A stretch of 64,000 bases of DNA from an uncultured Eubacteriales bacterium. GTDB taxonomy: Bacteria; Bacillota; Clostridia; Christensenellales; CAG-917. Both the position numbers and the translations under genes were made by a program. The DNA lies in the NCBI GenBank assembly GCA_900548005.1, contig URIZ01000002.1:13488-77487 (forward strand), written 5' to 3'. The notes beneath the pieces were generated by a model. It saw nothing but the letters and a program-made list of their open reading frames with translations, did not search any database and was not told the DNA's origin. Shown here piece by piece: positions 25,800-56,901 of the stretch; positions within the stretch are counted from its first letter, which is position 1, and every line of letters starts with the position of its first letter.

Positions 25800-26232
25800 T
25801 TAGCGAATAACTACGGCAGAGCCACGCTCCCGTCAACTCATGTACGCTCAGTACATTAGGGTTGCCGTTAGCGTGGCTCTTTCTTGTTCTTCATCTAAAT
25901 ATAACGATTATTTCACTTAATATTTATTGACTGCCGCAAAAAAACAACTCATGTACCAAATGTACACTAGGGTTGTTGCCCAAGGGGCTTTTCCTTGCTC
26001 TACATCTAAATATCAGCCTTATTTACTAGTTTTTTTATTAGCGAATAACTTCGGCAGAGCCACGCTCCCGTCAACTCATGTGCCAAATGTATATTAGGGT
26101 TGCCGATAGCGTGGCTCTTTCTTGTTCTTCATCTAAATATAACGATTATTTCACTTAATATTTATTGACTGCCGCAAAAAAAACAACTCATGTATCAAAC
26201 TTACACTAGGGTTGTTGCCCAAGGGGCTTTTC
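25800..26232. repeat. tandem array of four ~118-bp units (X1-Y1-X2-Y2; 238-bp super-period), each carrying a conserved bulged hairpin
   Basis: X1 25800-25917, Y1 25918-26037, X2 26038-26155, Y2 26156-26232 (truncated). Shared core is CAACTCATGTRY-loop-RTRYAYTAGGGTTG. X units add an outer stem AGAGCCACGCT/AGCGTGGCTCT (25818-25880, 26056-26118). Confidence 0.9.
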
Positions 26233-26252
26233 CGAACAAAAGCCGTCATTGC

Positions 26253-26394
26253 GGCAACGGCATCGCTTGCGTGCAAGCAACGCCGAGAGCCGCATTAGGC
26301 TTGTTGTTCTGCTAACCGCGCCGAAAATCTTTGCTATCAGTCTGGTCACGGACAAAAACTCCTGCCGCAATTTCGCAAGATTGTCGGCTTGGTG
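26253..26394. repeat. dispersed repeat, P+Q modules (copy 1 of 4)
   Basis: GGCAACGGCATCGCTTGC..GCAAGCAAYGCCGAGAGCC hairpin followed by TCTGCTAACCGCG...AAAAACTCC..CCGCARTTTCGC.ARATTRTCKGCTTGGTG. Other copies are at 46323-46510, 46511-46658 and 56733-56820. Confidence 0.85.
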
Positions 26395-26423
26395 TTTTAA
26401 GCGGTAAAATTCAAATATTCCGT

Positions 26424-26651
26424 GTCATCCTGAGCTTGTCGAAGGATCTCGTGGAAACGAAACGTCACTATATACACGTCATTTTACATCATTCCGCTAC
26501 CGCGAGATTGCCACGCTTACGCTACTCGCAACTGCTATGCTTGCGCATAGAAACCTGCGGTTTTGCCTTTTTCAAAGGCGTTGCTACGTGAATACATACG
26601 CTACGCAACCCTTGCAAGCAAGTTGCTCCGCTTTGCATTGACAACATGACA
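26424..26651. repeat. dispersed repeat, R module (copy 1 of 2)
   Basis: About 228 bp, highly similar to 46697-46924, except that 26435-26522 is the reverse complement of 46708-46795. Contains several short hairpins (CTATGC-TTGC-GCATAG, the CTTGCAAG palindrome). Confidence 0.9.
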
Positions 26652-26706
26652 GTTGGGTGGGATACCCACACCCGAATACAGCTCTAAAAATCACGCAAAA
26701 TTGTTG

Positions 26707-26735
26707 TTGCAAAAATCGGCGGTTGATGATATAAT
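26707..26735 (+). promoter_or_regulatory. extended -10 promoter for the SRP RNA gene
   Basis: TTGCAA (26707-26712), 17-nt spacer, TGATATAAT (26727-26735). Predicted start is near 26742. Confidence 0.65.
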
Positions 26736-26741
26736 CATACT

Positions 26742-27010
26742 GCTGTGCTAGACGGGGAGCTTGCGGTGCCCTGTAAACTGCAATCCGCAATAGCAGTGTC
26801 GAACACCATCCTAGGTCTTCATCATGGTTGGCTGCACGGCGCAAGGAGTGTCGATATCAAGGTCCTGTGCAATGTCATACTGTGAACCGTGTCAGAGCTT
26901 GACCGCAGCAGCACTAAGCAGGCGTTGGCGTGTGCCACAGGGAAACTTTGAAGGAGCCACCTACGTCGTTTCCGCTTCGGTGATGATTATCGAAGATGGC
27001 GCACAGTTTT
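26742..27010 (+). ncRNA. ffs: signal recognition particle RNA, large Bacillus/Clostridium type with Alu domain
   Basis: The 5' GTGCTAGACGGGGAGCTTGCGGTGCCCTGTAAACTGCAATCCGC matches the Alu-domain pattern of Gram-positive SRP RNAs. GGTCCTGTGCAATG...TGAACCGTGTCAG..GC AGCAGCACTAAGCAGG matches the domain IV pattern. The 5' CTGTGC pairs with the 3' GCACAG. Ends are approximate. Confidence 0.75.
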
Positions 27011-45700: not shown

Positions 45701-46313
45701 CGTCAACCCGCTCGCTTTGCAGACCTTGCAAGAGACCGAAGAAAGACTTCAAGAGCAAGTGACCTATCGCGACGACATCCAAAAAGCGTATGATGACATC
45801 GTCACAATCATCAACGAGCTTACGGGCGAGATGCAAACCAAGTTTACGGACGCTTTTGCCCAAATCAGCGAAAACTTCAAGGAAGTGTTCCAACAACTCT
45901 TCGGCGGTGGCAAGGGCGAGCTGCGTCTAAACATGCAAGACACGGACGATCCGCTTGAAGCGGGTATCGACATCTACGCTCAGCCCCCGGGAAAGAAATT
46001 GCAAAACATCTCGCTTTTGAGCGGCGGAGAGCAAGCACTCACGGCAATATCCATATTGTTTGCAATCCTCAAGCTCAAACCGATGCCGTTCTGCGTGCTT
46101 GACGAAATCGAAGCGGCTCTTGACGATGCAAACGTCAACTTGTTTGCCGAATTCTTGAAGAAATTCAGCGACTACACGCAATTCATCGTCATCACGCACA
46201 GAAAACCGACCATGCGCCACGCAGACACGATTTTCGGTGTTACGATGGAAGAAAAGGGCGTCACCAAGATCGTTTCAATCGAATTTGAAGATGCGGTAAA
46301 ACACGCAAAATGA
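42723..46313 (+). CDS. smc: chromosome partition protein Smc
   Basis: Walker A GPNGCGKSN, long coiled coils, hinge, signature LSGGEQALTAI, Walker B FCVLDEIEAALD. The TTG 42723 start (AAGGCGGTG RBS) gives the canonical M-LNFVKIEARGFKSF N-terminus. The ORF is open from 42669. Confidence 0.9.
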   Translation: MLNFVKIEARGFKSFADKIEIPFQEGVTAIIGPNGCGKSNVADAIRWTLGEQSAKSLRGKNMQDVIFAGTEKRKSMSYCEVSLTFNNSNQHIFPTMPFDEVVITRKLDRSGLSEYYINHNRVRMRDVISLFHDTGIGKEGYSIIGQGRVAEIMSAKPGDRRQIFEEAAGISKFRAQRTEAERKLEKTAVNLDTANQLIEEIQKQINPLRRQAETAQKYFELKAELKKNEVNLYIYNYENNQGIKEKINAKIDKAVTELRIREMQLAECVKKYDDSMRELAGIDRVYDDANGELLSLKVDAAKIEGQAGILKERINHIQGEITRLNSELQSIDNQLIVSGNLIQKAEEKKESEFQAFLLAKQEADALEAKYSSLTRTLAGSETDLEARNTEYVRAIEELGALKTNLSSIVAEKGINEERAKNLNALVNQQKARLDEELTNLSIYDANVKSTKERMRQLMTEYNETLSTKMECQEAIKSYADDVISLNQKLAIVLSNLNLATSIKNDYAGYQEAVKRLMQDSKHDPVLESKIMGVMAEVITVPSDFEAAIEYALGGAMQNVLVENENDAKDLINYLKQKGYGRITFRPLSSCRPRPIPAEHRGILSEPGCYGLASDLIKYDKRFDGFVQTLLGSTVVVNNIDNAVRIFKKYNQAVKIVTLDGEIFSRGGEITGGSRRSQTNGLLAQEKKIEQYQASLEKIKSNIALLDKQKQEREQELKDCEERIESLNKEIGELRIDNGLNEDKAKQAFEVTEALKGEISEKAKEYEIVKSRIKELDEKVSSIDELEKIVNERKTEYTTLLESSKSTSSEQKSERETMMTQVTEMRVKLAGYKANLDAIDQELNRYNREKQSLEEDKMDCIADLKREEQNLANIENAPEKTVFSKEDEERIAALEKQITEFSERKQILTESIKSLDAEKTRLTEEKSKLGEDKVRAEGMLQQVDIEIRNQQQHILEEYDLTYSSCLEFKDPEFKAYGALTVISDLKKSINRLGDVNPLALQTLQETEERLQEQVTYRDDIQKAYDDIVTIINELTGEMQTKFTDAFAQISENFKEVFQQLFGGGKGELRLNMQDTDDPLEAGIDIYAQPPGKKLQNISLLSGGEQALTAISILFAILKLKPMPFCVLDEIEAALDDANVNLFAEFLKKFSDYTQFIVITHRKPTMRHADTIFGVTMEEKGVTKIVSIEFEDAVKHAK

Positions 46314-46322
46314 GCAAAAACC

Positions 46323-46510
46323 GTCGCATAGGCAACGGCATCGCTTGCAAGCAAGCAATGCCGAGAGCCTGGCTAGGTTTATTGCTCTGCTAACCGCGCA
46401 GAGAATTTGCGCTCTCAGTTCAAGCAGGGGCAAAAACTCCTGTTGCAGTTTCGCCAAATTATCTGCTTGGTATGTTCGAAAGGGCGGGACACCCGCACCC
46501 GAATAAAAAT
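46323..46510. repeat. dispersed repeat, P+Q modules plus GGGCGGG hairpin (copy 2a)
   Basis: Direct tandem partner of 46511-46658. Starts 10 nt after the smc stop. Confidence 0.9.
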
Positions 46511-46658
46511 GTCGCATAGGCAACGGCATCGCTTGCAAGCAAGCAATGCCGAGAGCCTGGCTAGGTTTATTGCTCTGCTAACCGCGCAGAGAATTTGTGA
46601 CAGTTCAAGCAGGGGCAAAAACTCCGACCGCAGTTTCGCCAAATTATCTGCTTGGTGG
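46511..46658. repeat. dispersed repeat, P+Q modules (copy 2b)
   Basis: Near-identical to 46323-46471 over the P hairpin and the TCTGCTAACCGCGCAGAGAATTTG...CTGCTTGGT core. Confidence 0.9.
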
Positions 46659-46696
46659 CTCGCTCCGCTAGCGGTTTGTCGCAAAAGCCCCCTGTT

Positions 46697-46924
46697 GTCA
46701 TTGCGAGCGCAAGCGTGGCAATCTCGCGGGAGCGGAATGATGTGAAATGACGTGCATATAGTGCCGTTTCGTTTCCACGAGATCCTTCGACAAGCTACTC
46801 GCAACAGCTATGCTTACGCATAGAACCTGCGGTTTTGCCTTTTTCAAAGGCGTTGCTACGTGAATACATATGCTACGCAACCCTTGCAAGCAAGTTGCTC
46901 CGCTTTGCATTGACAGGATGACAA
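46697..46924. repeat. dispersed repeat, R module (copy 2 of 2)
   Basis: Matches 26424-26651, with the central 88 bp (46708-46795) inverted. Ends 70 nt before the ftsY ATG. Confidence 0.9.
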
Positions 46925-46993
46925 TAAGGGCGGCTCGTTGGAATATCGCCATTTGAATGGCAAGTACAATAAAATCTTATAAAGGATGACAAT

Positions 46994-56654: not shown

Positions 56655-56684
56655 TACTAGACTAAAAATCATCGCGTATTTACG

Positions 56685-56715
56685 AAATGCCCGCAATTTT
56701 GCGGGCATTTCTTTT
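56685..56715 (+). terminator. terminator after the CBM/GT-C gene
   Basis: AAATGCCCGC-AATTTT-GCGGGCATTT followed by CTTTT. Nested inside a longer inverted repeat TAGACTAAAAATCA / TGATTTTTAGTCT. Confidence 0.75.
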
Positions 56716-56732
56716 GTTCGCTTGATTTTTAG

Positions 56733-56820
56733 TCTGCTAACCGCGCAGAAAATCTCAGTTATCATATCATACATGGTTAAAAGTTCCAACCGCAATTTCA
56801 CGAGATTGTCTGCTTGGTGG
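56733..56820. repeat. dispersed repeat, Q module (copy 3)
   Basis: TCTGCTAACCGCGCAGAAAATC ... CCGCAATTTCACGAGATTGTCTGCTTGGTGG, the same ends and spacing as 26308-26394 and the 46.4/46.6-kb copies. The interior is more diverged. Confidence 0.75.
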
Positions 56821-56901
56821 ATGCGCCGTTGGCGCAAGCGGATATTTTTCATTTCGTTTGTAGCATGTAGCGATAATAAAAAGCACTCTTTCGAGTGCTT
56901 T

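Follow-up and report, generated by a model that had tools for sequence, protein, structure and literature searches.

REP, BOX, ERIC and SPRITE repeats have been known for decades. Another class of small, non-coding, high-copy, intergenic and hairpin-forming repeats is represented by the MITEs, including RUP of the pneumococcus and the Correia/NEMIS elements of Neisseria, in which the terminal inverted repeats are fixed and correspond to a parent IS and insertion produces target-site duplications. Terminal inverted repeats and target-site duplications are also described for the BOX elements of Streptococcus pneumoniae (boxA-boxB-boxC; Croucher et al. 2011, PMC3049150). Each BOX module folds largely on its own, and modules are found singly or in varying number and build arrays, while the family as a whole is intergenic, confined to one species group, comprises more than 100 modules at genome scale, is predicted to form extensive RNA structure if co-transcribed, turns over slowly and has no transposase of its own. 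The pneumococcal SPRITE repeats (PMC3049150) consist of a simple 18-bp duplex, longer than that of an ordinary terminator, which is located at gene ends and has A-rich and T-rich outer ends and a U-rich 3′ side. CGTC-tagged REPs, which lack a dedicated transposase (Di Nocera et al. 2013, PMC3733652), are simple palindromes of 20-40 bp, extragenic and downstream of coding regions, mostly in co-directional or convergent gaps, and are plausibly transcribed, with compensated stems and mosaic arrangements.

The element described here, P+Q, was found in a 64,000-nucleotide stretch (hereafter the window; positions 13488-77487 of contig C2) of an uncultured Eubacteriales bacterium, the assembly of which comprises 1.57 Mb in 26 contigs, with ~48% G+C and 98.7% completeness. 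The SMC protein of this genome shares 95% identity with that of the complete MAG CP091723.1 ('Christensenella sp.'); many uncultured gut Clostridia, among them 'Firmicutes bacterium CAG:475', have an SMC protein that is ~80% identical to it. The unit consists of two structured modules, P and Q. It shares with BOX the modular folding and arrays, the intergenic location in a single species group, the family size, the predicted RNA structure, the slow turnover and the lack of a transposase of its own; with SPRITE the long duplex at gene ends and the base composition of its arms, empty sites and target duplications being likewise not establishable; with REP/BIME and CGTC REPs the palindromic character, the position behind coding regions, the compensated stems, the plausible transcription, the mosaics and, in P, a CGTC-like motif; and with MITEs the general properties of size, copy number, location and hairpin formation. 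It is, however, set apart from BOX, SPRITE and CGTC REPs by the defining features testable here. There is no sequence similarity to BOX, and P+Q lacks terminal inverted repeats and target-site duplications, while Q contains a conserved 40-nt loop and P is anchored at stop codons. Unlike the SPRITE duplex, P folds as a hairpin of three helices whose internal loops are conserved, its outer arm can mirror the end of the host gene, and it is normally coupled to Q. P and Q, at 75-85 nt with conserved loops, furthermore exceed the REP palindromes in size and complexity, and, in contrast to REPIN-RAYT systems, the presence of Q is not linked to that of RAYT (Y1) genes. Unlike MITEs, P+Q has no matching parent IS among the families searched (DDE_Tnp_1, rve and IS110) and no target duplication. 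We suggest that P+Q represents a new, genus-specific family of modular, structured, non-coding interspersed repeats which behaves like BOX, SPRITE and REP, a reading to which we give about an even chance of being correct.

The Q module is ~80 nt in length and comprises a 17-pair interrupted stem around the 40-nt loop. A sequence-only reading of the window had pointed to a conserved AAAAACTCC box, together with CCGCARTTTCRC and ATTRTCTGCTTGGTG, and the conservation of all three is confirmed. The same reading had proposed a local hairpin, CTCTGC-TAACCGC-GCAGAG (or TCTGC/GCAGA), which does not hold up, as its arms are paired in 56.7% of cases vs 56.1% in shuffles and are broken in most copies, which read GCCGA. 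The true partner of GCAGARAATYT is ARATTRTCTGC, located 60 nt downstream, and across copies and species 5′ GC[C/A/G]GARAATYT pairs with 3′ ARATTRTC[G/T/C]GC. The supposed pattern of conserved ends and a variable interior is in fact the inverse of what is seen, in that the ends are the arms of the single 17-pair stem, which vary, and the interior loop is conserved. Arms of wholly different sequence, still complementary to one another, occur in other species, for example ACAATCGTGCGTGTGC/GCACGCACGATTGT and GCAAAGAATTTTTGC/GCAAAATTCTTTGC. Within the stem, a G.U pair is kept in every one of 95 unique copies, with a fixed C.U beside it and, deeper in the stem, an A.G alternating with G.A. The conserved loop sequence (GCTATCAG..CACGGAYAAAAACTCC.GCCGCARTTTCGC) showed no pairing internally or with the flanks by mutual information, and a search of the genome for a complementary target returned chance-level k-mers only. 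No CGTC- or GTAG-type tag is found in Q. A coding role on the minus strand, where a GGAG-N9-GTG start precedes a 56-codon frame, was considered and rejected, as the frame is shifted by a 1-nt indel in other species and the stem changes are compensatory rather than synonymous. Q is usually followed by a short GC hairpin.

The P module spans ~75 nt and folds into three stacked helices of 11, 7 and 11 pairs, with conserved internal loops (CGTCGC, GGCAA-CGGC, GCCG-AGA-GCC and GCTAG). P had been read as an imperfect hairpin of 10-12 bp, which is retained as the apical third of the 29-pair compound hairpin and is abandoned as a description of the whole, the module starting ~19 nt earlier (at 26234 and 46312 for the first two copies). 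The CGTC-like motif lies at the foot of the inner hairpin (columns 11-14 of the alignment) in about two-thirds of the non-redundant copies, the hairpin here being compound and 49-75 nt long. In a second class, P2, to which the fourth window copy belongs, a classic terminator apex is located inside an outer helix of 12-18 bp. Terminator character is otherwise limited in the P1 class to a U-rich 3′ arm (UUGUUGUUC), for which weak terminator flags are raised on both strands, and which is unflagged in locus L013. On either strand, the whole P+Q unit folds as two adjacent hairpins (z-scores of -3.6 and -4.4).

Four copies, all on the plus strand, had been reported for the window, and a covariance model of Q (R1) recovers exactly four (E-values of 1e-20 to 1e-24), with no further match below E=0.07. 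All of these are intergenic and lie behind a gene end, as originally stated. The P module of the first copy (26234-26309, plus strand; fold and covariation) is built from an outer helix GAACAAAAGCC/GGCTTGTTGTTC, a middle helix TGCGGC/GCCGCA and an apical helix CGGCATCGCTTGC/GCAAGCAACGCCG; its Q module (26310-26394, plus strand; R1 103.6 bits, E=1.6e-24) begins with the linker TGCTA, which is followed by the 17-pair interrupted stem ACCGCGCCGAAAATCTTTGC/GCAAGATTGTCGGCTTGGT around the conserved loop at 26336-26376. In the second copy, P (46312-46387, plus strand; sequence, nhmmer census and fold) has a 5′ arm, GAGCAAAAACC, which starts within the smc stop codon (TGA, 46311-46313), and Q (46388-46472, plus strand; R1 97.1 bits) carries the subfamily stem GCAGAGAATTTGCGC/GCCAAATTATCTGC, which differs from that of the first copy by compensatory changes. 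The unit is closed by a short GC hairpin, GGGCGGGACACCCGCACCC (46482-46500, plus strand), which an alignment of 66 units identifies as one of several tail types found behind Q. A third, tandem unit follows directly, with a P module (46501-46575, plus strand) in which the outer 5′ arm has decayed and a Q module (46576-46657, plus strand; R1 89.1 bits) with a 3-nt deletion in the loop. The fourth copy had been described as Q only. It is in fact preceded by its own P-type hairpin at 56660-56734 (plus strand), which was recognized by a terminator scan and by alignment with other P2 copies and begins 6 nt past the stop codon that terminates the 54507-56654 gene. Its outer helix, GACTAAAAATCA/TGATTTTTAGTC, surrounds a classic terminator, GAAATGCCCGCA...TGCGGGCATTTC (stem 56684-56711), followed by TTTTGTT. 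The corresponding Q module (56735-56819, plus strand; R1 94.6 bits) has an ortholog with 89% identity in a relative with a complete genome (G042), and a further short GC hairpin, GCGCCGTTGGCGC (56823-56835, plus strand), is evident from the sequence behind it, part of which is flagged as terminator-like.

Covariation, which had been proposed as a means of checking the element, lies far above shuffled and slid controls in both modules. Among 47 diverse copies, 95.9% of the Q stem positions are paired, vs 85.1% when shuffled and at most 43% in slid registers, with changes on both sides at 11 of the 17 pairs. For P, the figures for 31 non-redundant copies are 90.2% paired, vs 71.9% shuffled and at most 38% slid, with both-sided changes at 26 of the 29 pairs. 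While none of 500 shuffles reaches the observed score for either Q or P, this count is not to be read as a probability, as the copies are related sequences; the slid controls support the register of both stems. Of the two options initially offered, a MITE-like element or a small structured RNA, the structured character is thereby borne out by covariation in both modules, whereas the MITE option is disfavored by the lack of target-site duplications, of fixed terminal inverted repeats and of a transposase among the families searched.

The 5′ arm of P begins at a stop codon (inside it or at most a few bases away) or immediately behind another repeat module, as illustrated by the junctions TGA-GCAAAAACC at smc, TAA-CAAAAGCC and CAG-TAA-AAATCA. 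Between co-directional genes, 13 copies are oriented with the genes and three against them. When tested against replication strand, 24 of 36 copies are on the G-rich strand, compared with 72% of genes, and as the two proportions correspond, a replication-strand bias is inseparable from gene orientation. The host genes of the copies have nothing in common. The end of smc reads ...CAC GCA AAA TAA TCG in nearly all species of the genus, and the P 3′ arm at this site, GATTATTTTGC, is its exact complement. As outgroups without the element (L045, L033 and L040) have an identical smc gene end, the P 5′ arm is native here, and it is the 3′ arm that has been adapted to it. The same mirror effect is seen at the 3′ end of a tRNA gene (CCACGAAAAT/ATTTTCGTGG) and at the CAG-TAA gene end, and the locus-specific mirror arm of P is most easily explained by a templated process.

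The tRNA locus (L090) lies outside the window, at C2:179460-179650 of the same genome (G000), and has Q located behind a tRNA gene, past the terminator of that gene. Read as an inverted complement, the 10 nt immediately before Q (ATTTTCGTGG) match the 3′ end of the tRNA and the next bases (CCACGAAAAT), and the locus is 99% identical in the relative G042.

The complementarity of the P mirror arm to the native smc and tRNA 3′ ends might arise if the hairpins were DNA palindromes without selected structure, their compensatory changes being produced by quasi-palindrome correction through intramolecular template switching and the units representing neutral debris at gene ends. The variable mismatches of the Q stem, which show no strand bias at the RNA level (9 G.U vs 13 A.C), are also consistent with such an origin. 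Correction of this kind should, however, erase mismatches, yet the G.U, C.U and A.G of Q and a C.A of P are fixed across species, and sequence conservation extends to the internal loops and to the 40-nt loop. Fixed non-canonical pairs and conserved loops argue for selection on the structure rather than mere palindrome correction, and we consider the neutral palindrome explanation improbable.

Further copies had been anticipated, and many are present in the genome and in 39 related species. A profile (nhmmer) census of the genome identified 42 Q and 33 P modules, on both strands and all intergenic. BLASTN with the first copy gave 48 places in the genome, ~22 of which are full-length (~165 nt, 88-98% identical), the remainder being P-only or Q-only pieces, again on both strands, with several ending at contig ends; subfamilies are 90-98% identical. 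The Q model matches 40 of the 52 genomes of the genus, one of uncultured gut Clostridia, with 3-69 matches per genome and ~980 in total, and gave no match in the other 12. Beyond the genus, Q was found in a single one of 150 further genomes of the order, as two weak copies in a genome of the sister genus (G173), which retain the ACCGC, GCUA, ACUC, UUUCGC and UUGGUG motifs. The neighbors of both these copies are ordinary genes, and the idea of a parent element in the sister genus was discarded. The element had not been recognized as any named RNA family, and the Rfam search matched no family to P or Q: at gathering thresholds, only the SRP RNA and one tRNA are identified in the whole window, and at E<=10 no match over 25800-26760 overlaps the P and Q modules at 26234-26394, the nearest weak chance matches being located at 25951-26124 and 26541-26619. 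No P+Q match was found in phage records and viral contigs, nor in the 200 of 408 supplementary files of a microbiome RNA-motif catalogue that were searched.

Copies in this family multiply, line up in tandem, exchange modules and decay. P occurs without Q, while Q can be found behind P1, P2 or other hairpins (three kinds), and tandem P-Q-hairpin arrays of one to four units are present. This independence of modules, with variable number and arrays, is the BOX-type feature, shared in behavior only and without sequence homology to BOX. In comparison with G042, in which the flanking genes are 87% identical and third codon positions 74% identical, ~13-17 loci are common to the two genomes and about as many are not shared, and the tandem copy number differs. 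Truncated copies are common, and microhomology deletions and nested insertions also occur. A clean empty site was not found among 26 G042 loci and one locus in five relatives; no clean insertion boundary can be read, as the differing loci hold other repeat mosaics, one of them containing P and GCTAACCGC but no Q. For Q copies of unique sequence, identity between orthologs is 89-99%. Purifying selection specific to P+Q is not supported, as P and Q in long syntenic alignments are as conserved (89.9%) as the remaining alignable intergenic DNA (88.6%), and well above third codon positions (74%).

These data bear on the alternative that Q, alone or together with P, serves the host as a structured RNA, either a cis element of 3′ untranslated and intercistronic regions or a processed small RNA, with a loop that binds a dedicated protein, and that the copies are selected regulatory sites rather than parasitic repeats. 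The covarying stems, a loop sequence conserved in 40 species and the sister genus, the persistence of the G.U, C.U and A.G positions, the retention of the copy between smc and ftsY in nearly every species of the genus, and the high identity of orthologous unique copies relative to third codon positions would all be expected of such an RNA. The frequency of truncated and decayed copies, the turnover of approximately half of the loci relative to a species with 87% identical genes, a level of conservation not above that of other alignable intergenic DNA, the lack of a common theme among host genes and the 12 genomes of the genus without a Q match argue against it, and we regard a host-functional RNA as possible but doubtful.

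Several routes of mobility were evaluated. A cognate HUH (RAYT-like) or other transposase, which had been put forward as a candidate partner, is not found: searches for six Pfam families (Y1, PF01797; TnpB; RT; DDE_Tnp_1; rve; IS110) gave no match in the 98.7%-complete draft assembly, and the presence of Y1 in the genus is unrelated to Q. Y1 transposase genes are present in 12 of the 52 genomes, uncorrelated with Q, being absent from the Q-richest genomes (G012, G009, G034, G040 and G042) and present in others that lack Q (G037, G054, G055 and G007). Target-site duplications at copy borders, which had likewise been raised, are not supported, with a mean shared flank of 0.85 nt for 20 full units vs 0.94 nt for shuffled pairings. 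No fixed terminal inverted repeats exist in the composite P+Q; the arms of Q are inverted but vary, with compensation, between subfamilies and species. Sequences 5′ of P are heterogeneous, and no IS200/IS605-type target tetranucleotide is conserved there.

Two asymmetric sub-terminal hairpins in fixed orientation, without target duplication, together with the partly unpaired CGTC motif at the foot of the P inner hairpin and the occurrence of Y1 genes in the genus, would suit a non-autonomous single-stranded DNA element that is moved in trans by an HUH transposase (Y1/RAYT-type, IS200/IS605-like), with P and Q as its left and right end hairpins. Y1 and TnpB are, however, absent from the genome in question, Y1 is missing from the Q-richest genomes and found in some that lack Q, no conserved target tetranucleotide precedes P, and the wobble positions of P favor the strand that would be the leading-strand template, all of which render mobilization by an HUH enzyme very improbable.

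In outgroups, ftsY starts 10-30 nt behind smc, a spacing which indicates that the two genes form an operon, while within the genus P+Q arrays of 184-842 nt occupy the gap in nearly all species. This comparison includes 46314-46993 of the window and loci L016, L019, L021, L023-L026, L053 and L076. To judge from the sequence, P+Q behind smc is probably co-transcribed on the plus strand in the smc-ftsY message, since some species leave no room for a promoter. The gap of L013 contains P, Q, a small hairpin and 20 nt and nothing more, and in L004, L008 and L014 Q lies 50-60 nt upstream of the ribosome-binding site; in neither L013 nor L004 did a consensus scan detect a plus-strand promoter-like site in the stretch from P to ftsY. 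At this locus we infer that P is at most a partial terminator. Two further observations concern the end of smc. A promoter-like sequence, TTGAAG/TTGAGG-18-AATAAT, is located in the conserved last smc codons of L013 and L004 (5075-5104), with the stop codon inside the -10 hexamer, and could drive P+Q and ftsY or be due to chance. In one species (L011, 5100-5225), P behind smc is reduced to the outer helix and a 12-nt loop (GCAAAATAATCG-TCGCCAAGGCAA-CGATTATTTTGC) and Q is absent, representing a natural deletion variant.

The two modules give different indications as to the strand on which they act. P is more stable on the antisense strand in 68 of 72 copies (14 of 17 non-redundant), as two fixed plus-strand A.C/C.A positions become G.U on the minus strand, while the fixed G.U of Q lies on the plus strand and the variable mismatches of its stem show no strand bias. 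No single strand explains both signals, and the greater minus-strand stability of P weighs against the plus-strand reading favored here. The stability of P, and the hairpins with T-runs that a terminator scan finds inside P on the minus strand (26261-26242 and 46339-46320), would be in keeping with an opposite-strand small RNA, composed of Q′ then P′, in which P′ plus UUUUGUUC serves as an intrinsic terminator convergent with the upstream gene. Such a product is hardly credible, given that no consistent minus-strand promoter occurs downstream of Q, the invariant G.U of Q is on the plus strand, the minus-strand reading frame is not conserved and the element is situated within an ancestral operon.

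Taken on the strand of the upstream gene, each unit consists of two independent hairpins, the outermost 5′ arm of P coinciding with or abutting the stop codon of that gene. Under the favored reading of a BOX-, SPRITE- or REP-like repeat family, the units, which are situated in 3′ untranslated and intercistronic gaps, would be co-transcribed with the upstream gene and may form stable 3′-end RNA hairpins comparable to those of REP/BIME, BOX and SPRITE, acting as a partial terminator or exonuclease block, which the host may tolerate or use. The conserved Q loop could be a site read by a putative factor. Spread without a transposase of its own would most likely proceed by recombination or by polymerase template switching at hairpins, a route that would likewise produce the locus-specific mirror arm of P. 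A more specific proposal is that Q is a ligand, as RNA or extruded single-stranded DNA, with a loop read by a dedicated factor, that P+Q units are domesticated 3′-end and intercistronic control modules inserted in the smc-ftsY operon, and that the outer arm of P is written by templated fold-back from the last codons of the host gene. We consider this combination unlikely, and put it forward tentatively; if true, the templated fold-back arm would constitute a junction-forming mechanism that is not known from bacterial repeats.

P+Q provides a test case for how transposase-less repeats spread and whether they serve the host, with ~1000 copies in 40 species with small genomes (1.3-1.9 Mb), clean covariation and fixed non-canonical pairs. 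The conserved Q loop calls for a reader, and the dated insertion into the essential-gene operon smc-ftsY makes effects on expression measurable. Furthermore, P+Q repeats break contigs and create spurious ORFs in gut metagenome assemblies, in which the covariance model allows them to be annotated and masked.

P+Q is one of several repeat families in these intergenic regions. At 26000-26700, the gap separating an EF-G paralogue from the SRP RNA gene is a mosaic to which at least five repeat families contribute. Repeats account for 2.2% of the genome and for 18% of its intergenic DNA. Among the other families in this gap, a repeat of ~100 nt at 26036-26140 has ~30 copies in the genome. Several high-copy families are present in a genome in which none of the six mobile-element protein families is found. 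At L097 (G042) and at C15:12900-13200 of G000, a 48-nt direct repeat of the local terminator (ATCGCATATTTATAAGCGACACGC...TTTTTTGTTT) flanks Q on both sides, which looks as if an insertion had duplicated the whole terminator. Another repeat module (...GTCATTCAGAGCGAAGCGTGGGGATCC...) is located inside the Q 5′ arm or inside P in two loci (L004, 5160-5310; L027, 5139-5290), a nested insertion which indicates that other repeat families also move.
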